From the IMG/VR virus record IMGVR_UViG_3300047558_000137, positions 246,859 to 310,858 of that record: 64,000 nucleotides of DNA; one strand, written 5' to 3'. Below are positions 15,413 to 58,139 of this stretch, in pieces. The translations under genes were made by a program, and so were the position numbers. Each line of letters opens with the position of its first letter. The first letter of the stretch is position 1. Source of the DNA: a virus. Below the pieces are notes generated by a model, which was not told where the DNA came from, did no database searches, and saw only the letters and a program-made list of their open reading frames with translations.

Positions 15413-16966
15413 TTAACACCACCAATCGTAATCTTCTTCGCCGGTAATGTTGAATTCGAACTTGTACATGATACGAACTTTTAACTTGCGGCTCCACTGG
15501 CCATTCATTTGCCAGTCACTACGGTAAATCATGCCATCGTCGTCGCTGAAATAATAGAAAGGATTGTTAGTTGAATCGCCGTTCCAGATTGTATTATTTT
15601 TGTATGTGTCGTATGGATCATACGAGTTGTCGTTGTCGTTGCCGGCCCAGGCAAAATTCCACTGTGTGTACTCACTGTAGTCTTTTTCTTCAGTGTAGGT
15701 CTTGCACATAACTGTACCTTTGCCACCAGTGATACCATTGCTTCTTATAGCATTGTATTCAGGCATGTCTGTTTTGTAATCAAACCAGCGATAGCCATTG
15801 TTCCAGTTACTGTTAACGGTAGTAGGTTGATAAATGTCTAGTTCAATTCTACTGTCCCAACGATACCAGTGAACTTCGATTGTATCGCCGGTGTTCCAAG
15901 TTTGTGTTGATGCCAATTCAATTTGCCAATTCTTGTTGTCGCTGTTCTTGGCGTTCCAGAAAGTGAAATCTACAGGTTCACTGCCATTAATAGTTAAGTA
16001 ACCAGAGCGATTAGTGTCACCAGTATACTTGTTTGTACTTGTACTTTCCCAACCAAACTTAGCATAAAGTCCCCAATCAGGGATAGCACTATAAGGAATC
16101 TCTAAACTGCCTGTGCTGTTTTCGCCGCCGTTTTGAGCCTTAGTAGTAACAGTTTCTAAGTATAGGGTTTTGATTTCCAACGGAGTGCCATCAAAAGTAA
16201 TGGTGTACAGGTCGCCCTCGACTGCAACCGCAGTAATGTTACGGCTAAATGTTCTACTATAGTTCTTAAAAGTAATTGCATGTCTGCTGGTATTTGTTGT
16301 TAAGTTGGCTAAGTCAGATGACACACCATGTTCAGCGGCATCAATTGTAACTGTGTTTACTGTACCAGTTTCGCTTTGATCAGGGATTAACCAACCGTAA
16401 GTGTTAGTATACATGTCAACAGTACGAGTACCTTCGGACCAGTATTTAACTGTTAATTTTTCGCCATTATTAAAGTCGTAACCATCTATGCCAATTGTTA
16501 AAATACCATCAGCATAAGTGTTATACCCTGCGGCTATTTCGTTGCCGTATGTAGCACTTCCTTTGTAGATGGTGTAACCGTTTCCTTCGGAATCTGAGTT
16601 CCACCACATGTCAGCTACTTCGGGATAGTCCGCTACGTCCAACGCCAGTGATGTTACTCCAGTTTGACTGCTAGTATAAGTGTATTCAAACAGTTTATAA
16701 CCTTCTGTTTCAAAGTCAAATTGTTTGCTTCCAGAAACTGTAGCAATACGCCAAACGTTGTCGTTTATGCCGTCTGTCCAATCGCTAGCTACATCACTGC
16801 TGCCGCTACCGGAAATAGATTCAAGGCCAGCCCATGCAGTGACGCCATCACCAACTCGTAATTCGTTGTTGGTTGTGTCGTAACCGGGTTCGCCTAAGGC
16901 CAATACTGGATTTGCACTTGCCCAATTTGCGGCTGTATCTCTACGTAATTTAATTCTAGTTGTCAT
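15413..16966 (-). CDS. tail-fibre/baseplate-like structural protein with conserved phage N-terminal domain
   Basis: N-terminus KLRRDTAANWASANPVLALGEPGYDTTNNELRVGDGVTAWAGL matches a widespread phage tail-fibre N-terminal module; remainder rich in T/N/G/Y/W. Confidence 0.55.
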   Translation of the reverse strand: MTTRIKLRRDTAANWASANPVLALGEPGYDTTNNELRVGDGVTAWAGLESISGSGSSDVASDWTDGINDNVWRIATVSGSKQFDFETEGYKLFEYTYTSSQTGVTSLALDVADYPEVADMWWNSDSEGNGYTIYKGSATYGNEIAAGYNTYADGILTIGIDGYDFNNGEKLTVKYWSEGTRTVDMYTNTYGWLIPDQSETGTVNTVTIDAAEHGVSSDLANLTTNTSRHAITFKNYSRTFSRNITAVAVEGDLYTITFDGTPLEIKTLYLETVTTKAQNGGENSTGSLEIPYSAIPDWGLYAKFGWESTSTNKYTGDTNRSGYLTINGSEPVDFTFWNAKNSDNKNWQIELASTQTWNTGDTIEVHWYRWDSRIELDIYQPTTVNSNWNNGYRWFDYKTDMPEYNAIRSNGITGGKGTVMCKTYTEEKDYSEYTQWNFAWAGNDNDNSYDPYDTYKNNTIWNGDSTNNPFYYFSDDDGMIYRSDWQMNGQWSRKLKVRIMYKFEFNITGEEDYDWWC

Positions 16967-18799: not shown

Positions 18800-21700
18800 T
18801 TATCCTATGTATGTGACACCCCAGCTGTCATTGCTGTCAAAGTTAACGTTGCCCGATAATACTTTCATTCTTAGCGTATCACCAGCAGACATTTGAGCAT
18901 ATCCAGTTAAACTAAAATGCACGGCCGTACCTGTGTTAGTATCTGTTTCCCAGAACGCAACAACGTTGGCACCTGAGGTGTTGTTATTTTTCACAATAGT
19001 CACTTGATTCAATCCATTGTTAGTAGCTACACGCACAGTACCGTAGGCATGATATAGCCCCGATGCTGGAGCTGTAAATATGCCTGTGCTGTTGTTATAG
19101 TAGTTACCCTGATTGTAATCAACAGCTTGAGTACTAATTGTGGTGTTTGCTGTGTATACAGTTGAAGTGTTGCCATATACACGGAACGCCGGTCTATTAG
19201 GTGCATAGAATGGAGCAATACCACTAGCAGTAACGTTACCCGCAACAGTAACGTTAGGCATAGTCACTGTGCCCACGTTATTAAATGTTGAAGTGTAACC
19301 ACCAGCAACGATGTCTACGTTTGGAGTTGTGCCAGTTACGTTACCAGTTAACGTTCCAGTTACATTACCTGTAACAGTCCCAACTAAGTTGCCAATAAAG
19401 TTAGCGGCTGTAATGTTAGCAGTATAAGTTGCAGTAGTACCAATAGTATTACCGTAGTGTGTGCCTGTCACGTTACCTGCTGTAATGTTACCTGTTGTGG
19501 TAAATGTAGCAGTAGTTAAGTATGCAGCCACATTAGTATTACTGTATGTACCAGTTTGCGGGTTAGCAACTAGATAGCTTGCCACGTTGCTATTGCTATA
19601 CGTACCTGCCTGTGGGTTAGCTACTAGATAACTTGCCACGTTAGCATTGCTATAGATACCAGCTTGTGGGTTAGCTACTAGATAACTTGCCACGTTGGCA
19701 TTGCTATATGTGCTACTTGCTGCAACTGTGCTTAAAATGCTCACGCCGTTAGCAAACTTAAAGTCTGTGCCAATTACTGTACCTAACTCTAGATCGTCTA
19801 GTACTGCATTTGTAAAGTCAACCGTGTTGCCTGGTTGAGTGGTTACATTGCTAAACAGTTTCCAATTGCCAGCACTAGTATCGCGAACCAGACCTGTATG
19901 TTGTAACACACTGCCAACTGTGCGATGTGCAACAAATCCCAAGTCTAACGTGTCAGCTGGGTTGTTAGCGGCAATTTGTATAACGTTGTCTTCTACAGAA
20001 TAGCTTGCTGTAGAGATAGTTGTAGTTGTGCCATTAACAAACAAGTTGCCAACTGTTAAGTTGCCTATGATACTTACTGGCTCATGTGTGGGAAATGTTG
20101 TACTACCATTTGCTCCAAAGATCCAAGTACTCGATCCGGCCTTTAATGTTAGATCAGTTGGTGTTGCTAGTGCATAGTCAGGACTTGTGAATACATAAGT
20201 TCTACCACCCGAGTTGGGCCAATTAACACTAGTGGTTTTAATGGCGCCACCAAATGGGTCGTTTACACTTAAAATTGTATCAGTAAATCCTTGATTGTCT
20301 GTAACTGTCCAACCAGCCGCAACATCATTAAACGCACCCACTGAGAAATCACCACCAATGAATACCGCTAGTGTACCACCGTATCCATAACTTGGTTCGC
20401 CAGCGGTTGCTGTTGAGCCTGCAGCAGGAATAGTTCTAGCTACAACACTACCGCTACCAATTGTTAAGTTGCCGTCGACCCAAGCTGCTGTTACGTTGCC
20501 GCTGTTTAGATAGGTTGCTACATTAGAATTTGTGTACTGCGGATTAGCTGTTAAGTATGCCGCAACTTGTGTGTTGCCGTAAGCTGAGCCCGTGTAAGCT
20601 GTAGTTTGAACGGTATTGTCTGGGAATGTTATACCTGCGTTAGCAAATGTATATTTGCGTACACCTTGGTTGTAAAACTTAATGCCGTCGCTACCTGCGC
20701 CAGTGTTAAACCATGTGTAACCACTTTCAATACCTATACCATAACTCCAGTCTCCAGGGATAGGATATAGGTTAATTCTATCTTTAGTTCCACCAATTGC
20801 AGGAGCACCAATATCGTTCTGATCAAATATTAACCCGTAACCCCCAGACACTTTAATGTTGCCACCAACTTCTAGTCTTTCAGTTGGAGTAGTAAGGTTA
20901 TCACCAATACCAACTTTGCCATCGGCAGCAATATAAACTTCCGTTGTAAGAGATCCAGCAGATGCTTGTGTAATATCTGTTTCAGCAGTACGACCGATAC
21001 GAATTGGCACTGCACTATTATGTGTTAGTGCTCCTTCGATACCGTAGTATTTCATGAAGCCAAAACGCTTTTCGTTGCCAGCATCAACAATTAGACCTTT
21101 GCCTTCACTGTTGATATAGATAGTTCCAGATGTTGTTAAGGTTCCACCTGCACCAAAAGTCCATTGATGTGCTGAACCGTCATAGGAACTAATTTCTATA
21201 CTACCATCAGTTACTGTCTTAACATATTGATAGTCATTACCAATATACAATTCGCCGCCTTCGCCCGCTGTAATGTGTACATGAGGATAATCAAATGCGT
21301 TTGTTGGATAAATGTTAACCCACTGACCGTTACTGTATAACGAATCATTGGGCACTAATTCAATTGAACCCGGGTCTATTATGCTTCCATCGCCAATAAT
21401 TTTTACGCCAGAGAATGTAATATCGCCGGTATTCGCAGATCCAGCTGTGATTCCTTGTAGAATACTTTGTCCGTTGGCCCAAGTTATGTAGCTGTCCTCA
21501 GGTAATACAATGTTGCCATCTGTAAATGTAACTGCATTTTCTGCAACTACTGCTGGGTTAGTGTCAACCCATACGTTGCCAATCTTGCTGTACAATCTAC
21601 CATCTTCGGTATTGTACCATATACCGGATAATGGTGCTGTAGTTCCAGGGTTTAAATTAAACGCTGTAGTTTGTTCTGTAGTGTCTAGGAATACTAAGTT

Positions 21701-23338
21701 GCCACGCAATTCGATTGAGTTGTCGCTTTCATACTCAACCATGTTTCCGGGAATCGTTTGCGGATTTGCGTCAGCCCATTGAGTGCCATCCGCAACGTAC
21801 AGTCTACCATCGTCGGTGTTATACCATAGCGATCCTGCATTAGGTGGTTGTCCGATGTTGTCCACTAATACAATTGGATCACCTTGTTCTGTATTATCGC
21901 CTGTGTACGCTGTGTTTTGTACAGTACCGTCACCAAATACAATGTTACCGCCAATGTGGCTTGCGGGGCTTGAAGTAAAGTCCACTATAGTCGGTAATAC
22001 TAAATTGCCATCGGCAGTGAATAGCCACTTGGTGCCATCCTCATCTGTATTAATAACTACGCAATTACCACCACTGAGTCTGAGTGCATCCCCATCAATA
22101 TCTTGGTCTTGATCGATATACCCATACTCAAGCCAAATCGCACCACCAGTAGGTAAAATTAAGCTACCGTTACTATCCAAAACTGCTTCGTATTCACCAT
22201 TGGTAATTCTATCAGTTTGTACACCCCCAGTTTGGTCTACCCATTCAGTGTGATAATCGTCCCCGTCAACTTTAGCTAACACTTGCCCGGCTGTGCCACC
22301 CGATGGGACACCAACACCGGCTTCGCCCTGAATACCCTGGTCGCCTTGTGGGCCAGGATCTCCCTGCGGCCCTTGTTCACCTTGTGGGCCAGGTTCACCC
22401 TGGGGGCCAGTCTCTCCCTGTATACCCTGTTCGCCCTGTGGTCCTTGGTTACCTTGTATACCTTGTTCGCCCTGAACTCCTTGTGGTCCAATATCGCCTT
22501 GGACACCTTGCTCTCCCTGTGGCCCTTGTGGTCCAGTTTCGCCCTGTACACCCGGTTCGCCTTGGATACCTTGCTCACCAGTATCGCCTTTGTCACCACG
22601 TGGGCCAACAATAGGACCAATGTCGGCCCAACTACTAATAGTAGTGTTCCAGAAAAACAAGTTGCCTGTACTAGTAACAATATATGCTTCGCCGGCGTTG
22701 CCGCCGAAATTTAAATCCTCAGGTAATGCTACGTTACCAACTAGTGTTACGCTGACGCCTTGGTCACCTCGATCGCCTTTGATACCCTGAATGCCCTGTA
22801 TGCCTTGTGCGCCAACATTACCTTGTATACCTTGTATCCCTTGTGCGCCTACATTTCCCTGAATACCTTGTGGGCCTACATTTCCCTGAATACCTTGTGC
22901 GCCTTGTGGTCCAATGTTTCCGCGGATACCCTGAATGCCCTGTATGCCTTGTGGGCCTACATTTCCCTGAATGCCTTGTATACCTTGTTCGCCACGTGGC
23001 CCGGCATTGCCTTGGATACCCTGAATGCCTTGGATACCCTGGATACCCTGATCTCCCTGCGGGCCTTGTGGCCCGATAACATAACCAGCATCAATAGTAC
23101 TGTTATCACCTAATGTAAGTACTAAATTACCGGTTGCAACGTTTGCACTAGTAATAGTGCTGTCGCCACCGTTTGTTTGAATAATGTAACCACCCGGTGT
23201 TGACCCGTCTTGAATACGGAGAGTTTGCAATCCTGTATCAATAATTACTTCGCCGAGTGGTCCAGTATAAGAAGAGGCTGCGGCGGTATTTCCGCGTTTT
23301 AATAGGATTTGTGAAATTCTTACGTTTGCTGTTGCCAT
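18800..23338 (-). CDS. giant collagen-like repeat fibre protein (1512 aa)
   Basis: Two long Gly-X-Y tracts ([16 protein letters not shown]..., about nt 22290-23070) and C-terminal tandem [17 protein letters not shown] repeats; N-terminal [30 protein letters not shown] resembles phage fibre N-termini. Confidence 0.85.
19500..19725. repeat. intragenic tandem repeat, about 57-bp unit x about 4 (encodes repeated 19-aa motif)
   Basis: gggttagc(a/t)actagata(g/a)cttgccacgtt..attgctata..tacc.gc.tgtgg recurs head-to-tail. Confidence 0.7.
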
Positions 23339-31576: not shown

Positions 31577-32419
31577 TTATTTTCCTACATTAATGAAAGG
31601 CATAGCACCTGACATAACATTGGGCAAGTTACCATCCCACTTTTCAATTGCCTTCAATTGCACGTAAGCCGCGCCACCTTGGTTCTGAATAGCACTGGCT
31701 TGAATAGCAATAGCTTTAGCTTCACCTTCGGCCTGTGCAATACGGCTTTGTGCTTCAACTTTGATACGCTCTAAGTCCTGTTCAGCTTTTTGCTTTTGCT
31801 GAGTAGCAATAACTTTAGCTTCAATGGCCTTTTGGTATTCTGCTGAGAATCCAAAGTTCACTAAACTAATACCTTGCACATCAATGTCAAACGGAGCAAC
31901 CTTTGCACGAACATGGTTAAGGATTTCTGCACTAACTTGATCACGCTTGGTAATCAGTTCTTCACTGTTATAGTGAGCAGTTACAGCCTTGAACGCTTCG
32001 TTAACACCGGGGCCCAGAATCTTGTCATCCACATTAAGACCAAACTGGCTGTAGATAGTAGGAACCTTTTCGGGGCTCATACGATACTGAATAACAATAT
32101 CGGTATGCACAGACTGCAAGTCTTTGGTACCTGCTTGTGCTTCTTTCAAGTCCGCACGTTTAACTCGAATTTCAACATTTCGCACACTTGAAATTGGGTT
32201 AACAAAATTAACACCGGGTTGTAATGCAACAGGATTAACTGTACCCATTGTAACTTGAACACCCACGTGTCCTGGAGGCACAATAGTGAAACATTCAAAT
32301 ACAAAGGCAACTGCAAATACTACAGCACCTACCACAATGCCTAGTGTTCGTTGTGCAAACAAAAAGCCCCCAACGACTGCAACAATGGCAAGAAAAATAC
32401 CAAGAAAAATTCCAAACAT
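31577..32419 (-). CDS. SPFH/Band-7 (prohibitin/HflK-C-like) domain membrane protein
   Basis: N-terminal transmembrane segment; SPFH core (VQVTMGTVNP...VRNVEIRVKR...VHTDIVIQYR) and C-terminal A/E/Q-rich coiled coil typical of band-7 proteins. Confidence 0.8.
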   Translation of the reverse strand: MFGIFLGIFLAIVAVVGGFLFAQRTLGIVVGAVVFAVAFVFECFTIVPPGHVGVQVTMGTVNPVALQPGVNFVNPISSVRNVEIRVKRADLKEAQAGTKDLQSVHTDIVIQYRMSPEKVPTIYSQFGLNVDDKILGPGVNEAFKAVTAHYNSEELITKRDQVSAEILNHVRAKVAPFDIDVQGISLVNFGFSAEYQKAIEAKVIATQQKQKAEQDLERIKVEAQSRIAQAEGEAKAIAIQASAIQNQGGAAYVQLKAIEKWDGNLPNVMSGAMPFINVGK

Positions 32420-32422
32420 TAT

Positions 32423-32578
32423 TTAACTCCACAGGCCATGTTGATTTTGTCTGCTTCGACGCCGGCCTTAATAGCTTCGATGCGACACTGGTATTTGCTG
32501 TATTCCATAATGCCAACGGGTGCAAACAATGCGCCTATAACACCAACACAACAAATTGCAATCCATTTATCCATTGTT
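32423..32578 (-). CDS. small membrane protein (51 aa; below the ORF-track cutoff)
   Basis: MDKWIAICCVGVIGALFAPVGIMEYSKYQCRIEAIKAGVEADKINMACGVK read directly from the minus strand; fills the gap after the SPFH gene. Confidence 0.3.
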
Positions 32579-34357: not shown

Positions 34358-34623
34358 TACTGTACTCCTAAATCTTTCATGTAGTCTGCATCAAGTCTGA
34401 TGTGACCGTAGTTGTTTTCACGTAGTGTACTTGACACTGAGTTACTCGGGCATTTAGTTGAGAACACTGTTTGGTGTACACCCCACTTGGTTTCACGTCC
34501 AGTAATGCGAGTATTGTTTACATACACTGCACCCTGGTTTGTAACTTCAATTGTAACAGTTTTTTGTTTCATTTTGACACAGCTATTAAAAAAATAAACA
34601 ATGCAACAAAAGGATGCCCACAC
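34357..34623 (-). CDS. hypothetical small protein
   Basis: 88-aa ORF. Confidence 0.35.
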   Translation of the reverse strand: MWASFCCIVYFFNSCVKMKQKTVTIEVTNQGAVYVNNTRITGRETKWGVHQTVFSTKCPSNSVSSTLRENNYGHIRLDADYMKDLGVQ

Positions 34624-34662
34624 ATAAGTGCAAACATCGCTAGTATTGTACCAAAGAACTCT

Positions 34663-34908
34663 TTATCGGAGCCCATTATCGCACCTTACGCCTTTGCCAA
34701 ACTCATCTAGAATTTGACGGGTGCTGTCTTGTGTAATGATAAACTTGTATCCTTCGATACAACGGCTTTCGGTCATACCGTTAATGCCCCAGCTAACAGA
34801 AGAACCTACTGCCGCGCCCATTACAATGTTAACCACTGTAATGCCCACAATACCGATTATCACAATGACAACCATTAGTTCAATAAGTGTAAAGCCACGC
34901 TGTTTCAT
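34663..34908 (-). CDS. type IV pilin/pseudopilin-like protein (prepilin N-terminal methylation motif)
   Basis: MKQRGFTLIELMVVIVIIGIVGI is the class III signal: K/R-G-FTLIELM plus hydrophobic helix. Confidence 0.65.
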   Translation of the reverse strand: MKQRGFTLIELMVVIVIIGIVGITVVNIVMGAAVGSSVSWGINGMTESRCIEGYKFIITQDSTRQILDEFGKGVRCDNGLR

Positions 34909-35060
34909 TGTGCAACTCCTTCAATTTGATCAGCAATATTGGCAATCTGTTCGGCCATATCTTGCAGATCATCTGCATAGTTAGGATCGCACACTTGCAA
35001 AACTTGTTGAATCAACAAAGCGGCTTCTGCCAGCATTGTAATTTGTCCATACTTATCCAT
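34905..35060 (-). CDS. small hypothetical protein (51 aa; below track cutoff)
   Basis: MDKYGQITMLAEAALLIQQVLQVCDPNYADDLQDMAEQIANIADQIEGVAQ read from the minus strand; stop overlaps the pilin-like gene start. Confidence 0.25.
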   Translation of the reverse strand: MDKYGQITMLAEAALLIQQVLQVCDPNYADDLQDMAEQIANIADQIEGVAQ

Positions 35061-35229: not shown

Positions 35230-36273
35230 TTAAGCCGGCTTCATACAAGTCTTAGCCATACGCATCCAAGTTTCAGGAAAGCTCTGACGCAACTGTGCAA
35301 CCTTAATTGCCATACGCAAGCTCATTTCACGCAACTTGTTTTGATTTGTTTCCATAAATGCAATGACTTCGTCTTGTGCAATCTGCTCAAGATCCATGTC
35401 AGCAAACAGTGCGCCATCCTTAGCGATCTGTTTAATACGCAGAATCTTGTCACGCATAGTGTCAAGAGTCAAGTCAAGATAGTGACAACGTGATTGCAAG
35501 GCTTCAAGGTGATCTTTGAGCTTTTGCGATTTCATGTGGTCGAACTTGATGTTACTGATAAAGATAACACTGCCACGGAACTCAAACTGTGTAGGGATGC
35601 CTTCGCGGCGCAACAGGCTACTGTCGCTCAACCAACTAATCTTACGCTTCTTACCCGAGTCCAACGCACCTTTGAGCAAGTTCAACGAAACATCGTCAAG
35701 CAAAATGCTGTCGCAGTCATCAAACACAACCACGCAGTTAGGGTCGCTGTATTTGTAAAGTGTTTGATACAGGCCAATGGGAGTGGCCGCACCTTTGATA
35801 ACTTCTGCACGAAGACGGCGCCCAGCGATTTGATCCAGCAGTGTGGCTTTTTCGATTTCTTGTTCAACACCGAAACTCTTACCCACACCAGGGGGGCCAC
35901 TAACAATCATAGCACGGATGTCGCCATTGACTGTGGCCTTGGTCATCTCATGCAGTATTTCAAAGTTATCACGAATACGATCCATTGCTTGTTCGTCTGT
36001 TTCTACAGGTGCAGAATTTGCAACTTGTGCATCTGCGATAAATCCAATTGCGTTACTCACGTGGTGTCCTTCATTACCAACAAAGTTGTAGCTGTCGATC
36101 CCATCGACTTTGACACGAATCTGCTCTGGGAAGCCAGGAAAGGCTCCGCCGTTTGCAACGGTTACGTATCCACCGCGAGCAGTTTGTTTGTACTGCTCTA
36201 CTAACTCAAACACTTTTCCCGAAACATCAAAAGTGCGGTATGCACCTTTAATAATCTGAATGTGTGCTGTCAT
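35230..36273 (-). CDS. AAA+ ATPase
   Basis: Walker A VSGPPGVGKS, Walker B VVVFDDCDS, sensor region; 347 aa. Confidence 0.7.
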   Translation of the reverse strand: MTAHIQIIKGAYRTFDVSGKVFELVEQYKQTARGGYVTVANGGAFPGFPEQIRVKVDGIDSYNFVGNEGHHVSNAIGFIADAQVANSAPVETDEQAMDRIRDNFEILHEMTKATVNGDIRAMIVSGPPGVGKSFGVEQEIEKATLLDQIAGRRLRAEVIKGAATPIGLYQTLYKYSDPNCVVVFDDCDSILLDDVSLNLLKGALDSGKKRKISWLSDSSLLRREGIPTQFEFRGSVIFISNIKFDHMKSQKLKDHLEALQSRCHYLDLTLDTMRDKILRIKQIAKDGALFADMDLEQIAQDEVIAFMETNQNKLREMSLRMAIKVAQLRQSFPETWMRMAKTCMKPA

Positions 36274-40692: not shown

Positions 40693-41585
40693 AGTTGTTT
40701 TAATATAGCCGCTGCTATATCCTTTGAGTTAAAATTGCTTGAGCAAGGTGTGTTGCCCTTGCTACATACTAACTGTCTCACTGGACGAGCCTGTACGTCA
40801 TTGCACCCGCGACAATCTTCTAGTGTCTGTACCACTGTGGTATTGTATCCCAGCTGGTTGTTACGATAAGGCAAGATTACTTCGGGTCGCAGATGTGTTA
40901 GCAGTGCAACTATGTGCGTCGAACTGGCACTTGCAGCCCAATAAGGACCTGAATCAATGCCAACAAATGCTTTTGCACCGTCACATAGGACCTTTAACTG
41001 TTGATCATTGAACTTAGTACGTGCATCAACAAATAGTGGATGGTCTTCGATAAACAGGTCTGTTTCGCCGCCCACTGTTACAATCTTAAAGTCTGTGCGA
41101 GTTTCAAACAGTTGTGCAAAAACTTCAAACCAAATGTCGGCATTAATGTTTTTTGCAGTCCAATGCCAGTTACGCATATGAATAACAATATAACTATCTA
41201 GTTCATTCTGGTAAGCAAAGTTCAATACCTTAGTGGAATCTTCTTCTGTGGGGAATAATTCTGTTGATTGATCTAGACCTAGTTGCCCAAATGCACGATA
41301 GAAGTAGTTGTCTACATAGTGTTCTGTTGGATTAAGTTCATATGCATCGTCGAGATTAATATAAACATCATATCTATTGTTTACTGCTGGTATTTGGTCT
41401 ACAGGAAAGACGTTACGTATGTGCGGATTATTTCTATAAATGCCCGCAAAGTCTGTGGCAACGTCAATATTGGCATTGCTACCATAACGTGCCTTTAGTT
41501 CTCTAACTACCCCAGTGGTCATTACTACATCGCCAATTGCAGCACGGCGTTGTAATAGTATGTTAATTGACTTTTCTAATTTCAT
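40689..41585 (-). CDS. glycosyltransferase family 9-like (heptosyltransferase-like)
   Basis: FVGIDSGPYWAASASSTHIVALL matches GT9 GxDSGPxHLAAA motif; N-terminal ILLQRRAAIGDVVMTT matches the GT9 LxxxRxGDxVxxxP start. Confidence 0.6.
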   Translation of the reverse strand: MKLEKSINILLQRRAAIGDVVMTTGVVRELKARYGSNANIDVATDFAGIYRNNPHIRNVFPVDQIPAVNNRYDVYINLDDAYELNPTEHYVDNYFYRAFGQLGLDQSTELFPTEEDSTKVLNFAYQNELDSYIVIHMRNWHWTAKNINADIWFEVFAQLFETRTDFKIVTVGGETDLFIEDHPLFVDARTKFNDQQLKVLCDGAKAFVGIDSGPYWAASASSTHIVALLTHLRPEVILPYRNNQLGYNTTVVQTLEDCRGCNDVQARPVRQLVCSKGNTPCSSNFNSKDIAAAILKQL

Positions 41586-42790
41586 CGTTCTATTCTAATA
41601 TTAGGGAAGTAGGTCATGAAACGATCATTTAGATTATTTCTTGTTTTAAGTATCTTAGATTTAATTTCACGATAGAAATTCCATGCCAATGGTATAAACA
41701 ATACCTGTTCATCTTCTGCAAGACGTTCAAGATAGTTAATACTTACAACAGGAATGTCTGCGCCCGGGCATAAAGTTCCTTGTTTTAAAGGATTATCGTC
41801 TACAACTGCATCTAACTCAATACCACTTGCATTAATTACAGTCATGCCCTTAGCTGCCGCACCATATCCCACAATCTTATACCCTTGTGATCTATAGTCT
41901 GCTACCGTATCACGTAGATCCCCAATAAGAGTTGCAACATCCGATGCCCAACCTCTATAGGTATTGGGATCAGTTAATCCTGCAGCCGCTTCCATTGCTA
42001 GAATGTTTTCAACTCTTTGTGTATTCTTAGGCCGTCTAGCTAGAATAAAGATATAACTGGTGCCATGTATGGGTGTTTTAACTACATCAATTAAGTGTAG
42101 ACCTGCACGTTCTGCTAATGCCTGCATACTTGTGGCGTTGTAGAAACTAATGTGTTCGTGATAGATAGTATCAAACTCACTATTGACAACCATATCGGCT
42201 TGACTTGTGCTGATAAAAATCATTCCGGTATTGGTCATACGCTGTCTAGCGGCCAATAACCAATTTAAGGGATTTGGATTGTGTGCAAAACTGTTCTGTG
42301 CGGTAATAACATCAAACTGTGTATCAAAGCCTTGATCAGTTGGCCAGAAGTCGCATATAACTTGATGTCCTTTTGCTACTGTGTCTGCGTGTAGATTCTT
42401 TGCAGGATCCACACCATATGTTTTAAACCCTAAACGTTTAAATGCATCAAGTTGACTACCATCATTGCAGCCAATATCTAGTACTGTAGTGGGCCAATGA
42501 TCGAACTGTTCACGTACAAAACGTGCATACCAATCCATGTATTCAACATAAGTCCGACTTGTGCCACTAACATAGAGATAGTGGGTATAGATTAGTGCAG
42601 GATCTACTGCGTGTGTTAGCTGTAGATGATTGCAATCGTTGCAACGGTTAATGGCCAACGGATAACGTGGCTCAACTGCTGTGGTAGACCTGAAGTTATT
42701 GGCCAATGGCTGCTCACCTAGATCTAATGTAGGTGTTAAATCTGTGCTGCCACAGGCCACACAACTGGTAATAGGATCGCAATTATTCAT
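41582..42790 (-). CDS. SAM-dependent C-methyltransferase, TylCIII/NDP-hexose 3-C-methyltransferase-like, with N-terminal Zn ribbon
   Basis: N-terminal CVACGS...CNDCNH zinc-binding domain, class I SAM motif VLDIGCNDGSQL, length 402 aa as in sugar C-methyltransferases. Confidence 0.6.
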   Translation of the reverse strand: MNNCDPITSCVACGSTDLTPTLDLGEQPLANNFRSTTAVEPRYPLAINRCNDCNHLQLTHAVDPALIYTHYLYVSGTSRTYVEYMDWYARFVREQFDHWPTTVLDIGCNDGSQLDAFKRLGFKTYGVDPAKNLHADTVAKGHQVICDFWPTDQGFDTQFDVITAQNSFAHNPNPLNWLLAARQRMTNTGMIFISTSQADMVVNSEFDTIYHEHISFYNATSMQALAERAGLHLIDVVKTPIHGTSYIFILARRPKNTQRVENILAMEAAAGLTDPNTYRGWASDVATLIGDLRDTVADYRSQGYKIVGYGAAAKGMTVINASGIELDAVVDDNPLKQGTLCPGADIPVVSINYLERLAEDEQVLFIPLAWNFYREIKSKILKTRNNLNDRFMTYFPNIRIER

Positions 42791-43506
42791 TAGTTCTTAA
42801 TCTGTACGCCGTTTGGTGCAATATGTCCTTCGACCCCAAGCAAAGGTTCGTTGTGTACGTGTTCTTGTGGTAAGAATTTATACAATACATGTTCAATGTC
42901 TACATACCCGCCATTAGCAAGGCGTTCAGCAAAGAAGTTAAAGCTATCTAGGTAAACTTGTATAACTTCATCGGTCATTGTAGTAGGCCAAGACCATAGA
43001 CGTGCCATGTATTGCAACGGTACTTGTGTAACTTCAGGCGGGAATTGACTAGGTTGTGCAGGGCCAATAACAATCTTATCTTTAATATCATCACGTTCGT
43101 AAAGATCTAATTTAAAATCATCATTGAGCAGATATCTTCCTGATACTTTGTGTACACGGTCAAATCCATTTAACATGTTTTCTTGTTGTAAGATACCAAG
43201 TACGCGACTAAAGCACATGATCTCTGTACCGTTCTTAACTACGTCCCAGTTGTCATTGTCGTATAGAGCTTGTACATCTTCATCTGTACTGCAATCAATG
43301 AACACATGGCATACTTCTTTAAGTTGATTGGCTTGTAAATCCTTAATAGGTGTGCCGCAGACTTCCATAACAACAATCAACGCATCGGGCACACGTTGTT
43401 TAATTGTGGCGATAGTGTTTAGTGTTTGGTCTAAACGCTCACGTGGACTGTATACTCCAAATTTACTGTTAATTGCGCTGGTTACGATAAATGCATGTTT
43501 AGTCAT
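42790..43506 (-). CDS. hypothetical protein in sugar island
   Basis: 238-aa ORF coupled to flanking sugar genes. Confidence 0.45.
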   Translation of the reverse strand: MTKHAFIVTSAINSKFGVYSPRERLDQTLNTIATIKQRVPDALIVVMEVCGTPIKDLQANQLKEVCHVFIDCSTDEDVQALYDNDNWDVVKNGTEIMCFSRVLGILQQENMLNGFDRVHKVSGRYLLNDDFKLDLYERDDIKDKIVIGPAQPSQFPPEVTQVPLQYMARLWSWPTTMTDEVIQVYLDSFNFFAERLANGGYVDIEHVLYKFLPQEHVHNEPLLGVEGHIAPNGVQIKN

Positions 43507-43519
43507 AATATATTCTACT

Positions 43520-44704
43520 TTAATAATCTCTGTTAGTCAATTCAATTTTAACTCGTTTACGATACGTGGCCAATGCACTACCAATAACTTGGTGCATGTC
43601 GTAGTACATGTATTCGCCTAAGCGGCCGCCGAAGATCACGTTGGGCTCTTTTTCTGTTAAACTACGGTATTGTGCAAACATTTCCATATCCTCTGGTGTC
43701 TTAACAGGATAATAAGGAACGTCATCTTGTGTTGCAGTGCGGCTAAACTCTCTACCAATTACCGTTTTTCCATCAGCTACACGACGTTCAGGATGAAAGT
43801 GTCGATGTTCTACTTCACGTGTCCACTTTACATCCGTGTCGGGATAATTTAATACAGCGACACCCTGGTAGTCGTTGGTATTTTCTGTACGGTATTCAAA
43901 ATCTAGTGTGCGCCAATTTAGTTGGCCATAGCAATAATCATAGAAAGCATCAATTGGGCCAGTGTAGACCACCAACTTTTCACGTGCCAGATGTTTTACA
44001 TCTTCCCAACAAGTGTTTAAGTGTACTGTAACGTTGTCATGTGCCAACATCTTTTCAAATATTGGTGTGTAACCGTCAACTGGTATGCCTTGATATCTAT
44101 TGTTGTTAGGATAGTAGTCTGTTCGGTAGTCTGTATAAACAGGTAAACGTTTAGCAACACTAGCAGGTAGTTCTTTAGGATCAGTTTCCCACTGCTTTTG
44201 TGTGTATCCCTGCACAAACGCATGATACAATTTAGAACCTAGCAAACTTAGTGCTTGCTCTTCAAAGTTCTTAGGATCATCATAGTGTACTTTTTGTTCT
44301 TCTAACCAACGAGCTGCGTCTGCAGGGTTAAACTCATTACCAGTAAACTTGTTTATTGTATCCAAGTTAATAGGCATGGGGTAAACTACACCTTGATGAC
44401 TTGTTTTGCAGATATGTCGGTAGTTGTTAAACTCAGTAAATTGATTTACATAGTCCCAGATTTCTTTATTATCTGTATGAAATATATGAGAACCATAACG
44501 ATGTACATTTATACCAGTCTCCGGATCAAACTCAGTATAACAGTTGCCACCAATATGATTGCGACTATCAATCACAGCAACCTGAAAGCCATCTCGGCTA
44601 GCCTGTTCAGCAACTACGCTACCAAAGAAGCCGGCACCAACTACAACTAAATCAACGTTTTTAAACATTACTTGCTTAACCAGCGTGTGTTTTCTAGGGT
44701 CCAC
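43520..44704 (-). CDS. glf: UDP-galactopyranose mutase
   Basis: N-terminal FAD fold VVGAGFFGSVVAEQ, then NHIGGNCYTE...YGSHIFHTDNKEIWDYVN...QGYTQKQW...YQGIPVDGYT...IFGGRLGEYMYYDMHQVIGSAL, colinear with E. coli Glf. Confidence 0.9.
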   Translation of the reverse strand: MDPRKHTLVKQVMFKNVDLVVVGAGFFGSVVAEQASRDGFQVAVIDSRNHIGGNCYTEFDPETGINVHRYGSHIFHTDNKEIWDYVNQFTEFNNYRHICKTSHQGVVYPMPINLDTINKFTGNEFNPADAARWLEEQKVHYDDPKNFEEQALSLLGSKLYHAFVQGYTQKQWETDPKELPASVAKRLPVYTDYRTDYYPNNNRYQGIPVDGYTPIFEKMLAHDNVTVHLNTCWEDVKHLAREKLVVYTGPIDAFYDYCYGQLNWRTLDFEYRTENTNDYQGVAVLNYPDTDVKWTREVEHRHFHPERRVADGKTVIGREFSRTATQDDVPYYPVKTPEDMEMFAQYRSLTEKEPNVIFGGRLGEYMYYDMHQVIGSALATYRKRVKIELTNRDY

Positions 44705-51822: not shown

Positions 51823-51896
51823 TGGAGCGGGATAGCGGAATCGAACCGCTGACTTGAACTTGGAAGGATCTCGTTTTACCATTAAACTAATCCCGC
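51823..51896 (-). tRNA. tRNA, probably Gly(TCC); anticodon stem imperfect
   Basis: Cloverleaf with T-arm AGCGG-TTCGATT-CCGCT, acceptor GCGGGAT/ATCCCGC, encoded CCA; loop CTTCCAA but only 3/5 stem pairs. Confidence 0.6.
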
Positions 51897-51903
51897 ATAA
51901 ACT

Positions 51904-51978
51904 TGGTACCTTGTGACAGTTTCGAACTGCCGACCCTCTCGGTGTAAACGAGACGCTCTACCCCTGAGCTAACAAGGC
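51904..51978 (-). tRNA. tRNA-Val(TAC)
   Basis: GCCTTGT-TA-GCTCAGGGGTAGAGC-G-TCTCG-TTTACAC-CGAGA...TTCGAAA; CCA encoded. Confidence 0.8.
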
Positions 51979-52081
51979 AACTATTTTTTGTACTCTTGCA
52001 AGTACTGATTTCTTTTTGAAATCTTTTTATATCTACTTCCTTTGCCTTTACTACCAAAGTTTTCTGTTTGACTATGGCAAA

Positions 52082-52157
<76 letters not shown>

Positions 52158-52161
52158 CATA

Positions 52162-52238
52162 TTGGTTGCAGAGGCTGGATTCGAACCAGCGGCCTCCAGG
52201 TTATGAGCCTAGCGGGATGACCAACTTCCCTACCCTGC
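52162..52238 (-). tRNA. tRNA-Met(CAT), initiator-like (C1 opposite A72)
   Basis: CGCAGGG...CTAGG-CTCATAA-CCTGG...GCTGGTTCGAATCCAGC-CTCTGCA-A-CCA; unpaired 1:72 is the bacterial initiator hallmark. Confidence 0.75.
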
Positions 52239-52246
52239 GTCAATAT

Positions 52247-52882
52247 TTATACCAGCTGCTCTGCTACTAACAGAGAAACTGTATCAGCATCCAATTCGAT
52301 TTCGGTGCGAACATTAAGTTCCAACACCCGATCATTGATGCTTTGTTTTTCTTTTTTCAGGCTACGCATTTCTGCCTTGTAACCTTCAATTTGTTCTGCT
52401 GTCAACACGCCAGTGTCAACTGTGTCGCTGTACCCATACATACGGGTCTTTGAATCGCTGTCGCGAAGTTTCCGCAACTTGCCAGACAACACTTTTTCCG
52501 ATTCAACAACTTTGCCTTCGGTTAGGCTTTTTAGTTGGCCAATACGCTTATCAACGTAAGCGGCTTCTGTGAGCAAGTCTGCTACACCACTTGCGGCATT
52601 AGCACGACCAACTTGGGCACGAATTGCGTACAAGGCCTTTGTCAGCTTGTTACGGCGTGCATCGTTAGCAACAACGCCTTCACGAGCACAAGCCAACTCT
52701 TTAGCTGGATCCTGGAACTCGTTTAGTGAAAACGATGTAGTCACTTCAATGGTTTTTGTGTGTTCCTGGATTGTGTTTTGTAATGCGTTTGCTTTGCGAA
52801 GTGTAATCTTCATAATCGAGTCCCTTTCTGATTGAATTATAGCAGTGAGCGTATGGCAAGTCAATTGCCGGACAATGTGCAA
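52247..52882 (-). CDS. hypothetical coiled-coil protein (start possibly at internal MKITLRK)
   Basis: 211-aa ORF directly downstream of tRNA-Met. Confidence 0.45.
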   Translation of the reverse strand: MHIVRQLTCHTLTAIIQSERDSIMKITLRKANALQNTIQEHTKTIEVTTSFSLNEFQDPAKELACAREGVVANDARRNKLTKALYAIRAQVGRANAASGVADLLTEAAYVDKRIGQLKSLTEGKVVESEKVLSGKLRKLRDSDSKTRMYGYSDTVDTGVLTAEQIEGYKAEMRSLKKEKQSINDRVLELNVRTEIELDADTVSLLVAEQLV

Positions 52883-53108
52883 AATACATTAGCGGTTAGA
52901 CATTTTTAGGCGCCTAAATTACTAAAGCAAAATACAAGAGACAGAGGATACCAATATTCGTGAGTGTCAACAAACAAGGCAATTACGCCGGGGTCTCACA
53001 TCACTGGATCACGATTGTTAATGCAATATTTCCGTTCAAGGGAATATTACGGTGCAATCTCTCATCTCCATACACATCACCGTCCTGTTTTAATAAACAG
53101 GCAAAATC

Positions 53109-53291
53109 TTAACAATGTTCTTTAAACAACGCCTTGCGCTTTTCTTGGCCCAATGTGTTATCTAAAACATCTTTGCATCTATTCATCATACCAAAACATA
53201 AAATCAATAACTCATTCTGGTCATCGCACATCATAATCTGCTGTTCGATGGGTTGCATAAGTTCTTTTAATTTTTGATCAATAGGATGCAT
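53109..53291 (-). CDS. small hypothetical protein (track ORF 53109-53366 runs into tRNA-Cys; shortened to internal Met)
   Basis: MHPIDQKLKELMQPIEQQIMMCDDQNELLILCFGMMNRCKDVLDNTLGQEKRKALFKEHC. Confidence 0.3.
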   Translation of the reverse strand: MHPIDQKLKELMQPIEQQIMMCDDQNELLILCFGMMNRCKDVLDNTLGQEKRKALFKEHC

Positions 53292-53296
53292 AAACT

Positions 53297-53372
53297 TGGA
53301 GCACGGTGTAGGAGTTGAACCTACCTCATACCGGGTTTGCAATCCAGCGCATAACCGCTCTGCCAACCGTGC
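53297..53372 (-). tRNA. tRNA-Cys(GCA)
   Basis: GCACGGT...D-loop AGCGGTTA identical to E. coli tRNA-Cys, loop TTGCAAA, T-arm GTAGG-TTCAACT-CCTAC, CCA encoded. Confidence 0.75.
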
Positions 53373-53504
53373 ATAATTCTTTGTTTAGTGGGCTACCCCT
53401 CATGTTCTCTTACTCTTGGGTAACGTGACCAGATCGCATAGCACCGAAGAACAATCCGTACTATACTAGGCTCCCTCGCTAAAGGCATCACTAAACAAAA
53501 ACTT

Positions 53505-53596
53505 ATATGTAAACACACTACCACGGCGTTATACTGCTGTATCGCAAGCAATACTACCATGTCTACCCATTGTGCATGTAATGTGTTTGCATATAA
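53505..53596 (-). repeat. copy A of about 90-nt conserved hairpin element (arms ATGTAAACACACT / AATGTGTTTGCATAT)
   Basis: Second copy at 56129-56207 abuts the 3' end of tRNA-Lys; arms are inverted repeats of each other, inner region partly conserved (AATACTACC / AGTATTGCTACC). Confidence 0.55.
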
Positions 53597-53597
53597 G

Positions 53598-53670
53598 TGG
53601 AGGACTGAGATTACATCTCTCCCAATAGCACCTCGAGCATTATACTGCACCTTGCGAGCACAGCTTCTCT
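53598..53670 (-). pseudogene. degenerate tRNA-like remnant (3' end CTCAGTCCTCCA resembles tRNA-Lys 3' end) attached to repeat copy A
   Basis: No canonical T-loop; same junction with the hairpin element as the intact tRNA-Lys copy. Confidence 0.25.
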
Positions 53671-53928
53671 CGACATCCACGGTAACCCTTGCGGTATTAC
53701 TGTCTGCTATCAGCATCGCCGTTTTTAACGTCAGGCAGTAGACGTGTCGCTATCAGCTACTCTGTACCTTATTTCCCGTTGACCTTTAGAGCCATTCACA
53801 GTCGCTAAACTGTTACGAAACTTCTAGTACAAACCAATTTCACCTTGCGAGTTACGTTGGACTTGATTCACTTGCGTGTCAAGCATTAGATGCTTTTCAC
53901 TGATAACCGTGTCAGACTTTGCGTTTTT

Positions 53929-54000
53929 CGATGTTAGCTGGGATCGAACCAGCAGTCTATTTCTTAGAAGGAAATCGGCCTACCATTAGCCTATAACAAC
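53929..54000 (-). tRNA. tRNA-Arg(TCT), no encoded CCA, one acceptor mismatch
   Basis: GTTGTTA-TA-GGCTAATGGTAGGCC-G-ATTTC-CTTCTAA-GAAAT...GCTGGTTCGATCCCAGC-TAACATC. Confidence 0.6.
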
Positions 54001-54735
54001 CTACTATGATGAGCTGACACAGTTGATCCATACACTTTTGGTATACAGAATACAACTCACCACGTACCTTTCCTCTCGCGGAGTAATCAGTCGTTTTTTG
54101 CGATCAATGTCTACGCTAACACGTAACCACCAACCACTCAAACTGCACTACAACCCTTAGGAGCGACCCCTCGGATCATAACGCTACCCTTTCTCATACT
54201 AACTGACAAGTTGGTTTTGCTGTGAAGTCGGCACCACCCGTTACTTTCCACACACCCGAGTTCCCTTTGATGCGATCTCTGGCTCGACGATATGCGTTCT
54301 TCCCACAGCACTTGCTTCATTGTTACATCCACCGGTCTTATCAGTGAACGCTACCTCACGGTAGTGAGCAGGCTTGCTTAAATGAACTATTGCTAGCGGA
54401 GTTGCGTAGGCTTACCTCCTTTGGCTGTGTCACCACAGTTATTCTTTGTCTAGCCGGGCGAACCGACTCTACAGGACATTAAGCTGCCCTTAAATTCTTA
54501 TACAACTGCACACTCACAGGAATTGAACCTGTCTACCTGGCGACCATTTGTTCATCCAGGCTGCAATCCGCTACATCTGCGTGGCCTACGCATTTGTGTG
54601 CATGTGTATAAGAACTTCTTATACTTTAACTTTTTAAAGAACATTTTCGTCAGTTATTGCTAACTGTCTAAGTATCTATTGTTACATAAAAAACATTTAT
54701 TGTCAACTGTTTTTTAGATAAAAATAAAAATATTT

Positions 54736-54810
54736 TGGTCCGGCGTGCAGGAATCGAACCCACATTCGCGAGGTAGAAGCTCGCTGTATTATCCATTATA
54801 CTAACGCCAG
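54736..54810 (-). tRNA. tRNA-Arg(TCT), second copy; paralogous to tRNA-Arg(ACG) at 58222
   Basis: CTGGCGT-TA-GTATAATGGATAATAC-A-GCGAG-CTTCTAC-CTCGC...GTGGGTTCGATTCCTGC-ACGCCGG-A-CCA. Confidence 0.75.
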
Positions 54811-54830
54811 TTAGATATAAGTATTATACT

Positions 54831-55385
54831 ATGAGTCACCTTTATAGCCAAGAATTAAAAACATGGAACGAGCATCTTTTTCAAAGTGACTACGGCTGGG
54901 GCAACAATCAAACGTACCTCTTTCCACTTAATGCCGATACCATACTAAAAGATAACGACATTATAAAGCTAATTAAACCAAAATCAATATTAGATTATGG
55001 TTGCGGTAATGGTTTAGTATTACAAAATATTTGTCAAACTTTCCCTCATATACACGCTGTTGGCTATGACCCTTTTGTAGGAAAATACGCAGAATTTCCA
55101 CAAGGTGAGTTTGATCTAGTGTTGTCCTACCATGCAATTAACAACGTTGAGTATGACTACTGGGACGAGACCATCTCTAAGTTACAACAACTCTGCAAGT
55201 CTAATGCATTTTTTAAAGTAGTCCTAACTGGCCGATATCCAGAAAGAACCTTTAGCTGGTACAATGACGAATTTAGCAAATATTTTAAGATACGGCGTAG
55301 TTTCCATGACACTATTCCAACTACACGAAGCTCGGTGTTTGAAAACAAGACGGTGTTCTTTGGAACATTTTGGCTTACTAGATAG
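54831..55385 (+). CDS. class I SAM-dependent methyltransferase
   Basis: ILDYGCGNGLVLQNI motif I, acidic motif II GYDPF; only plus-strand gene inside the tRNA island. Confidence 0.65.
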   Translation: MSHLYSQELKTWNEHLFQSDYGWGNNQTYLFPLNADTILKDNDIIKLIKPKSILDYGCGNGLVLQNICQTFPHIHAVGYDPFVGKYAEFPQGEFDLVLSYHAINNVEYDYWDETISKLQQLCKSNAFFKVVLTGRYPERTFSWYNDEFSKYFKIRRSFHDTIPTTRSSVFENKTVFFGTFWLTR

Positions 55386-55468
55386 TGGTACCCCCGGTCA
55401 GATTCGAACTGACATATTATACTCCTCTGTTTGAGAGAGGCGACTTTACCAAATTTGTCCACAGGGGC
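55386..55468 (-). tRNA. tRNA-Leu(CAA), class II long variable arm
   Basis: GCCCCTG...CCTCT-CTCAAAC-AGAGG plus 12-nt variable arm, GTCAGTTCGAATCTGAC, CCA encoded. Confidence 0.75.
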
Positions 55469-55474
55469 ATTTAT

Positions 55475-55550
55475 TGGTGGCAAGGACTGGGGTCGAACCA
55501 GTGACACACGGATTTTCAATCCGCTGCTCTACCAACTGAGCTACATTGCC
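55475..55550 (-). tRNA. tRNA-Phe(GAA)
   Basis: GGCAATG-TA-GCTCAGTTGGTAGAGC-A-GCGGA-TTGAAAA-TCCGT...ACTGGTTCGACCCCAGT; CCA encoded. Confidence 0.8.
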
Positions 55551-55752
55551 ATATAGAAGCACTCTCAAATGCAGGCCTAGGAGGAGTCAAGCTCTGAAAC
55601 CGTTGCGTATGCATCCACTTGGGTCTCATCTCCCGCTTTGTCTTACGCCAAGAATACTTCTATATGAGCTCCACCGTTAACTGACGCTTGTCCTAGCTTT
55701 ATTTTGTGTCGGTTAATGCACGGTGGACACACATGCCGACAGATTTTTATGC

Positions 55753-56282: not shown

Positions 56283-56286
56283 ATAT

Positions 56287-56361: not shown

Positions 56362-56454
56362 TTAGTGTATTACGTTTTGTTTAACGTGCTAACCCAGACC
56401 AATACGGGATCTGAGTCAACACTAACGTTTACCACGTTTCATGTTGTTCTCCTG

Positions 56455-58129: not shown

Positions 58130-58139
58130 AGTATATTTA

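Follow-up and report, generated by a model that had tools for sequence, protein, structure and literature searches.

What use does a bacteriophage have for a protein that begins like a type IV pilin? The question is raised by a small gene, here called the mini-pilin gene, in a stretch of 64,000 nucleotides (positions 246,859 to 310,858 of IMG/VR virus record IMGVR_UViG_3300047558_000137; below, the window). The product of this gene is MKQRGFTLIELMVVIVIIGIVGITVVNIVMGAAVGSSVSWGINGMTESRCIEGYKFIITQDSTRQILDEFGKGVRCDNGLR. An identical protein (P0001) is on record, on a 374-kb metagenomic contig, where the Joint Genome Institute (JGI) labels it 'prepilin-type N-terminal cleavage/methylation domain-containing protein'. 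As judged by comparison of its relatives, the working part of the mini-pilin is its C-terminal head, a membrane-tethered periplasmic mini-domain, and the prepilin helix is the predominant, and apparently the ancestral, anchor of this head.

In type IV pilins, Gly at position -1 is needed for cleavage by prepilin peptidase, Phe at +1 is N-methylated, and Glu at +5 is needed for assembly. The N-terminus of the mini-pilin has the form of a class III signal in the type IVa style. It reads MKQRG, a basic leader, and then, after the predicted cleavage point, FTLIELMVVIVIIGIVGITVV, with Gly-1 (G5), Phe+1 (F6), Glu+5 (E10), and about 25 hydrophobic residues. The alpha1-N-like helix also has Thr+2 and Gly+14 (aa 19) as landmarks. 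The Pfam model N_methyl (PF07963) matches with 37.4 bits (cut-off 21.2, E=1.5e-9) and TIGR02532 (IV_pilin_GFxxxE) with 34.2 bits (cut-off 16.3), while the remaining NCBIfam pilin and pseudopilin models match residues 1-32 only and fall far under their cut-offs. The first-pass annotation had recognized a prepilin cleavage and N-methylation signal in this protein, and had made the claim depend on an N_methyl match and on the residues at -1, +1, and +5. All of these are present, and both models score above their curated cut-offs. Cleavage is predicted after G5. A six-frame motif scan of the window gives no second prepilin-type open reading frame (ORF); the one other loose motif match is inside a spurious frame and has neither leader nor hydrophobic helix. 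No prepilin peptidase gene was recognized among the window ORFs scanned. The mini-pilin gene looks real: it has a Shine-Dalgarno site, its ATG overlaps the stop codon of the preceding 51-aa ORF as ATGA (tight translational coupling), an identical protein is recorded, full-length homologues number in the hundreds, and the proportion of nonsynonymous differences among them (pN) is low.

A first homology search gave 751 matches, the best 120 of which are 78-120 aa long, cover 94-100% of the query, and are 63-100% identical to it. When 1.84 billion representatives (50% clusters) were searched exhaustively with a profile, about 170 clusters reached E<=1e-10, and almost every match was full-length, in a protein of 65-100 aa. 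The family is defined by a signature near the C-terminus, G-x-N-G-x-x-E-x-R-C-[IV]-x-G-[YF]-K-F ... Q-[IV]-[LM]-D-x-x-G-x-G-[VI]-x-C, which the window protein carries, together with a Cys spacing of 25-26 residues, a length of about 65-100 aa, and an N-terminal membrane anchor. In the alignments A1-A5 the window protein is the first sequence. In the close family (A1/A2; 38 sequences, 60-85% identity), G5, T7, L8, and E10 are invariant and F6 is conserved in at least 90% of the sequences. Almost no variation is seen in the leader with the helix start or in the last ~38 residues, and residues 21-38 are free to vary. The (near-)invariance of the signal residues argues for genuine processing by the host prepilin peptidase. 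Among 64 representatives at 36-64% identity, Glu+5 (E10), Cys50, and Gln65 remain invariant, and Gly-1, Thr+2, Gly53, Gly71, Gly73, and Cys76 are conserved in at least 90%. The two Cys are 25-26 residues apart in 184 of 188 family members; residue +1 is Phe in 173, the leader has five residues in 133, and a Pro is found near +22 in 80.

The same regions stand out at the codon level. Over 65 distinct coding sequences of the family, synonymous sites are saturated (proportion of synonymous differences, pS, 0.69-0.79), and pN is 0.21 in the signal and helix start, 0.54 in the variable stretch (aa 21-38), and 0.27 in the C-terminal domain (C-domain). Saturated pS with low pN implies that the signal residues are actively kept. 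By these substitution patterns the family is old and under purifying selection rather than recently acquired. Proteins of 214-517 aa that end in a whole mini-pilin, internal 'GFTLIE' included, are also found (P0140, P0144, P0170, P0200, P0221, and P0249). They were considered as fusions and are mostly, it is probable, upstream ORFs read through into the mini-pilin gene. P0144 and P0200/P0221 have no obvious internal start and might be genuine fusions.

The rest of the protein is not that of a pilin. The fold of type IVa pilins and pseudopilins is taken here as a continuous alpha1 helix of ~50 residues whose C-terminal half packs on a sheet of 4-5 strands, with a head of at least 90 residues. 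The mini-pilin lacks the amphipathic alpha1-C and the alpha-beta loop, and its head has only 38 residues. The flexible linker that follows the helix lies where the family varies most (aa 21-38). The C-domain reads SWGINGMTESRC-IEGYKF...RQILDEFGKGVR-C, 38 residues bracketed by Cys50 and Cys76. With a diverse alignment, AlphaFold2 predicts a helix at residues 8-31 and a head of four short strands (37-41, 44-51, 54-58, and 63-65). The mean predicted local distance difference test (pLDDT) score is 84, with block means of 84-93 for residues 41-70 and 83 for residues 71-80. An earlier AlphaFold2 model has an identical topology, with the helix reaching residue 31/33. The two Cys enclose the head as a whole rather than a D-region, and probably form a disulfide bond; the head is predicted to be periplasmic.

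No match to the head is found in Pfam, NCBIfam, PHROG, PDB, or BFVD. Foldseek gives a best E of ~3 against PDB and of 0.05 against BFVD (an 80-aa Delftia phage protein), both uninformative. When the family profile is compared with solved structures, matches are confined to the first ~35 positions. The best of these are type IVa pilins (Geobacter PilA-N at 1.4e-10, PilA, PilE, MshA, and Thermus PilA4/PilA5), followed by PpdD and GspG; type IVb pilins match weakly. The mimic of a host pilin proposed in the first-pass annotation is therefore not borne out beyond the N-terminus, since alpha1-C and the alpha-beta head are missing and the head is unrelated to the cellular pilins examined or to PDB entries.

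While the head stays the same across the family, the anchor does not. The anchors of 169 complete low-redundancy members were classified by direct reading of representatives and by a profile search with the C-domain alone; as this search gave short proteins only and had a small candidate set (95), the derived proportions are rough. A strict prepilin motif is found in 125 members (74%). In 13 (8%), 'FTLIE' with Glu+5 is kept and Gly-1 is replaced by A, S, N, D, K, or R. Another hydrophobic anchor or signal peptide is found in 28 (17%), several of them resembling further-decayed prepilin helices, and a lipobox-like signal in three (2%), most clearly in P0306 (...ALTG followed by C). P0182 is a further example of a lipoprotein signal behind the same head. 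Pfam N_methyl does not match P0226, P0264, P0182, P0159, P0209, P0158, or gp002 of Acidovorax phage ACP17. The last 37 residues of ACP17 gp002 nevertheless align with the family C-domain by hhalign with 97% probability (E=5.7e-11). A head that is constant while its anchors vary is what marks the head as the working part.

The family has been seen here on viral or phage-like contigs only and is common to hundreds of large phages, most of them uncultured. In a scan of IMG/VR, 167 relatives were detected on viral contigs, the largest of 331 kb; about 75 of these relatives are full-length. Where the gene context was obtained by exact look-up, it was phage-like throughout: small genes packed densely in one orientation, together with genes for T4 rIIB, DNA ligase, radical-SAM, and Band_7 proteins. 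A scan of cellular genomes covered one genome per species for 185,579 bacterial and archaeal species, and the best 80 of at least 600 candidates were inspected. These 80 match over residues ~1-40 only and are ordinary full-size PilA/GspG-type proteins. The C-terminal motif is found in none of these 80 cellular loci versus 74 of 88 viral loci, which strongly suggests, but does not prove, that the C-domain is absent from cellular genomes. Three cultured phages have a member. N_methyl is recognized in that of Synechococcus phage BUCT-ZZ01, which is 49% identical, and in that of Xanthomonas phage BUDD, which is diverged and encoded 2.3 kb from an SPFH gene, but not in gp002 of ACP17. The hosts of these phages (Synechococcus elongatus, Xanthomonas, and Acidovorax) all produce type IV pili, which is circumstantial support for the type IV filament reading given below. 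The ACP17 locus (L170) also has a small gene annotated 'swarming motility' (2015-2212), located 1.4 kb from gp002 between RnlB and DNA ligase.

What, then, may such a protein do? The reading that we put first, with something less than an even chance, is that the mini-pilin is processed by prepilin peptidase, is embedded in the pilin pool, and acts as a periplasmic effector that disturbs the type IV filaments of the host, resulting in exclusion. The small inner-membrane protein would be made during infection of a Gram-negative host and inserted N-in/C-out. Host prepilin peptidase would remove MKQRG, Phe+1 would be N-methylated, and the mature protein of 76 residues would join the pilin pool of the inner membrane and expose its disulfide-bonded head to the periplasm, where the head would bind a conserved partner. 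The pilin-type helix may concentrate the head at the machinery of type IV pili or of the type II secretion pseudopilus, or permit loading. A subunit without alpha1-C and a normal head would then perturb or terminate filament assembly. The pay-off would be a lost or altered surface receptor and the exclusion of superinfecting or competing pilus-dependent phages. A second pay-off would be that progeny are spared adsorption to doomed cells. The capping or poisoning of type IV pili or the type II secretion system, or superinfection exclusion, as suggested in the first-pass annotation, is plausible.

The type IV filament reading is supported by the retention of Gly-1, Phe+1, and Glu+5 in ~74% of deeply diverged lineages. 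It is also supported by precedent. The prophage protein P-FimU is incorporated into the type IV pili of P. aeruginosa and blocks tip-binding phages, and PilA-like genes, including truncated forms of ~60 aa, are found in virulent phages, for which exclusion has been proposed (Sztanko et al., Cell Rep 2026, PMC12952977). Circumstantial support comes from the cultured relative PA5oct, which appears to need type IV pili as a second receptor (PMC6950013). Several observations weigh on the other side. It is the head, rather than the pilin helix, that is invariant, and ~26% of complete members are without a strict prepilin signal. The loss of Gly-1 or the presence of unrelated anchors in these members, ACP17 gp002 included, implies that some lineages can do without prepilin processing. 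The head is strongly conserved between cyanobacterial and proteobacterial phages, whereas the heads of receptor pilins and of P-FimU are hypervariable. With alpha1-C missing and a head unlike any pilin head, the ability to polymerize is unproven. Finally, no type IV pilus or type II secretion (pil/gsp) gene recurs beside the family in 68 loci. A periplasmic role independent of pili is almost as likely as a pilus-directed one.

Such a role could be that of a periplasmic exclusion factor similar to Spackle (Sp) or Imm of phage T4, the main rival explanation, possible but doubtful, in which the head is a tethered effector and the prepilin signal is merely an ancestral, convenient anchor. The head would bind a component of incoming related phages (e.g., a tail-tip lysozyme or an ejection protein) or a conserved structure of the envelope. 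T4 Sp is small and has an export signal and a disulfide, and the mini-pilin is alike in kind. The constancy of the C-domain behind a plain transmembrane segment, a decayed prepilin helix, or a lipoprotein anchor (P0306 and P0182), as well as in ACP17 gp002, favours this explanation. The conservation of the head in phages of very different hosts (BUCT-ZZ01 at 49%, BUDD) would fit a target that is phage-encoded or universal. The restriction to viral or phage-like contigs, mostly large ones, agrees with it too, and so do T4-like genes (rIIB, UvsW, and DNA ligase) in several neighbourhoods, which resemble T4 early regions with rIIB, DNA ligase, and RnlB nearby. However, if any anchor serves, there is no ready reason for Gly-1, Phe+1, and a membrane-buried Glu+5 to be fixed in ~74% of deeply diverged lineages, or for Glu+5 to persist in the 13 members that have lost Gly-1. 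In addition, the mini-pilin has no similarity in sequence or fold to Sp, Imm, or any solved protein.

The T4-like surroundings also raise a regulator of lysis timing, which we consider improbable. Here the mini-pilin would be a tethered, releasable periplasmic domain like the T4 antiholin RI, or a holin partner, that senses superinfection and delays lysis. Its architecture is RI-like, with an extractable or weakly hydrophobic Gly/Ala-rich N-terminal helix and a small periplasmic domain, and some loci directly follow rIIA/rIIB-like genes (PF26926) or are near DNA ligase. In T4, such rIIA/rIIB or DNA ligase regions border rII/rIII. Yet no homology to RI, T, or holin families is found in Pfam or PHROGs, no endolysin, holin, or spanin gene recurs adjacent to the family, and the conservation of the prepilin residues is left unexplained. 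A structural pilin is very unlikely. By this reading the protein would form a polymer, by itself or together with the pilins of the host, or would cover the host pilus, and would thereby alter adhesion, aggregation, or the uptake of DNA to the advantage of the phage, as the pilins of provirus SNJ2 do in haloarchaea. In its favour, alpha1-N is complete, with Glu+5, Gly+14, and frequently Pro+22; filaments can be built from pilins of very small size, and Geobacter PilA-N gives the best match in PDB; and there are documented cases of host machinery assembling the pilins of a virus (PMC12426801). On the other side, the same head is conserved on non-pilin anchors incapable of polymerizing, there is no alpha1-C for packing the head against the helix, no partner pilin or assembly genes are nearby, and long-term remodelling of the surface is less useful to a phage that looks lytic and T4-like.

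Among known systems, P-FimU and P-PilA are similar to the mini-pilin in being phage-encoded, in having prepilin signals and needing the host pilus machinery, and in that exclusion of other phages is proposed or shown. They differ in that each is recognizably homologous to one particular host pilin, over the head as well, and in that they are diverse in sequence, whereas the mini-pilin has a strongly conserved head without relatives among the cellular pilins examined and no alpha1-C. Their carriers are temperate siphoviruses; those of the mini-pilin are large T4-like phages, and the window phage is a jumbo myovirus. The truncated PilA-like proteins of ~60 aa in lytic Pseudomonas phages and the 'pilin' PHROGs 13280, 10597, 11263, 27437, 11596, and 3433 are likewise short with an N_methyl-type N-terminus. 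Matches of the mini-pilin to these PHROGs are restricted to residues 1-39, and none of the profiles reaches the C-domain. Neither the C-domain by itself nor the members without a prepilin signal match any PHROG. Type IVa major and short pilins, PpdD, and GspG have the same leader length, Gly-1, Phe+1, Glu+5, Gly+14, and often Pro+22. In contrast to them, the mini-pilin is not encoded with pilB/C/D/M-Q and has a head of 38 residues without alpha1-C or alpha-beta loop.

T4 Sp, Imm, and RI, early proteins of small size that are exported or membrane-bound, serve superinfection exclusion and lysis inhibition. They resemble the mini-pilin in size, in an N-terminal export or anchor signal, in a periplasmic working domain, and in being encoded by a T4-like phage in a non-structural neighbourhood. 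These proteins are not known to use a prepilin-type signal, and no match of the Sp, Imm, or RI type to the mini-pilin is found in Pfam, PHROG, or NCBIfam; profile and fold searches of PDB gave pilin N-termini or noise. Genes labelled 'pilin' in GenBank in the T4-like cyanophages S-CAM7 and ACG-2014f have a prepilin signal and are found in Kyanoviridae genomes. They were examined as family members and rejected; their products are 100-127 aa long with a different head, no second Cys, and no Q-x-L-D...G-x-G-V-x-C, and only the signal is common. The type IV pilins of the haloarchaeal provirus SNJ2 hijack the host assembly machinery (PMC12426801); in contrast to the mini-pilin, they are archaeal, temperate, full-size, and form dominant surface filaments, and there is no sequence relation. 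It is thus already known that phages carry genes with a prepilin signal, labelled as such by JGI, GenBank, and PHROGs, and a functional precedent exists (PMC12952977). What appears undescribed is a conserved Cys-bracketed mini-domain family, viral in the material studied here, that is mostly carried on a type IVa prepilin helix, is widespread in uncultured large phages, and has natural anchor variants.

The surroundings of the gene are summarized in Table 1. The mini-pilin is co-oriented with the AAA ATPase, the UvsW-like helicase, the DnaB-like helicase, and GroEL. In 21 of 68 non-identical viral loci a phrog_1250 AAA ATPase is immediately upstream of the pilin, which is the arrangement of the window. 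A gene for an SPFH/Band_7 protein, preceded by one for a 58-aa membrane peptide, is ~1-2.5 kb from the pilin in 28 of the 68, and a UvsW-like helicase is downstream of it in 18. One of the SPFH loci also carries a ClpP/NfeD-like gene. The SPFH pair may form a module for membrane remodelling that is tied to the pilin, or the arrangement may be conserved synteny and nothing more. The other recurrent neighbours are small genes without annotation. Apart from this HflK/C-like SPFH protein, comparison of the neighbours with PHROGs and NCBIfam gives no functional clue. In PA5oct, no prepilin-type ORF is found beside its AAA homologue. In L004-L006, a 35-aa ORF situated downstream of the pilin, at a distance of ~650 bp, has 45% identity to the 35-aa hydrophobic ORF at the 3' end of the mini-pilin gene.

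It was also considered that the pilin is far better conserved than its surroundings. This is true only where the flanks are rearranged. In loci with the AAA/UvsW module the median identity is 57% for the pilin, 52% for the AAA ATPase, and 67% for UvsW. Divergence is incongruent in some loci: the pilin is at 37% and the AAA ATPase at 67% in L155, the pilin is at 61% and Band_7 at 89% in L119, and in L002 the pilin (P0004) is at 87% with unrelated flanks. This hints at allele exchange between phages or at uneven rates.

Table 1. Positions in the window of the mini-pilin gene, its parts, and other features
Feature	Position	Strand	Remarks
Mini-pilin coding sequence, complete	34663..34908	minus	ATG start, 81 aa + stop; ORF list, sequence
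Shine-Dalgarno AAGGAG, strong	34916..34921	minus	7 nt before the mini-pilin ATG; sequence
Leader peptide MKQRG, aa 1-5	34894..34908	minus	Gly-1 at end; predicted prepilin peptidase cleavage after G5
alpha1-N-like hydrophobic helix, aa 6-31	34816..34893	minus	membrane anchor; AlphaFold2, hydropathy, family-profile alignment
Linker, short, Gly/Ala/Ser-rich, aa 32-38	34795..34815	minus	pLDDT block 57-68; in the place of alpha1-C in true pilins
C-domain, conserved, aa 39-76	34681..34794	minus	alignments A1-A5, Cys spacing, AlphaFold2
51-aa ORF, upstream	34905..35060	minus	stop overlaps mini-pilin start; weak phrog_9167 match; homologues in only 2 related loci
AAA ATPase, upstream	35230..36273	minus	phrog_1250, E=6.5e-81
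SPFH/Band_7 (HflK/C-like) membrane protein	31577..32419	minus	PF01145, E=9e-31; 2.2 kb downstream
SPFH gene with small membrane peptide	31577-32574	minus	same pair in L002 6617-7411, L004 6506-7303, L007 6578-7381, L171 5544-6246
35-aa hydrophobic ORF	34569-34676	minus	overlaps mini-pilin 3' end by 14 nt
Hairpin with weak T-tail	34638-34613		inside the 35-aa ORF
GroEL, 539 aa	37552-39171	minus	phage GroEL
Promoter upstream of GroEL	39526-39497		perfect sigma-70 consensus TTGACA-18-TATAAT
Two hairpin terminators, strong, GC-rich	37536-37517 and 37207-37190		3' of GroEL; common stem sequence
Sugar-modification cluster	41582-44704	minus	C-methyltransferase (Methyltransf_13/14); UDP-galactopyranose mutase (GLF, E=1.5e-74)
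Three Mtd_N proteins	18800-23338, 15413-16966, 1245-2582	minus	major tropism determinant N-terminal domain
tRNA block	51823-63191	minus	27 genes for most amino acids, small ORFs between
Radical-SAM protein	58534-59706		within the tRNA block

That the gene is encoded by a phage, as stated in the first-pass annotation, is confirmed by the content of the window, which is part of a 374-kb contig of a jumbo myovirus, and by its relatives. Besides 27 tRNA genes, the window has genes for two helicases (one UvsW-like, one DnaB-like), for three fibre proteins of the Mtd_N type, for GroEL, and for an SPFH protein. At the protein level, the cultured phages that come closest are all jumbo myoviruses: Sinorhizobium phage Phosso (53%), Agrobacterium phage Atu_ph07 (49%), the Pseudomonas PA5oct group (48-49%; AAA ATPase 40%), and Rak2-like phages. 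By megablast, the 4-kb region around the gene has no match in 50,697 phage genomes, implying that the window phage is distant from all cultured ones. The three Mtd_N proteins are presumably tail fibres or receptor-binding proteins; one, of 1512 aa, has collagen triple-helix repeats and a C-terminal C1q domain, and another has a pectate-lyase-like domain. The C-methyltransferase and the UDP-galactopyranose mutase are unusual auxiliary genes for a phage. The two terminators 3' of GroEL separate it from the block that holds the mini-pilin. Counts of promoter and terminator motifs in the region are not above those in shuffled sequence, so that these operon boundaries are suggestive only.

Taken further, the mini-pilin head may be a new periplasmic effector module, virus-only so far, that large T4-like and jumbo phages, from cyanophages to proteobacterial phages, have long kept and that is mostly delivered by hijacking the prepilin pathway, with the helix placing the effector in the pilin pool or pushing it toward the surface on a (pseudo)pilus. 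This proposal is speculative and, in our estimate, less likely than not. If true, it would define a new class of phage envelope or superinfection-exclusion factors and would put the type IV filament pathway to a new use, the secretion of a viral protein.

Phage pilins have been shown experimentally to be anti-phage devices only recently, in temperate Pseudomonas phages, and the mini-pilin extends this theme. Its family is large and old and is found on viral or phage-like contigs, many of them from seemingly lytic large phages, which are almost absent from culture collections. It follows a different logic, with a conserved novel head on a pilin anchor instead of a copy of the host pilin. The natural anchor variants amount to an anchor-swap series by which action on the pilus machinery can be separated from action anywhere in the periplasm. 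Since three cultured phages carry members (BUCT-ZZ01 on the tractable S. elongatus PCC 7942, BUDD, and ACP17), the question is directly testable, and the answer could show how giant phages manipulate the surface organelles of their hosts or exclude competitors.

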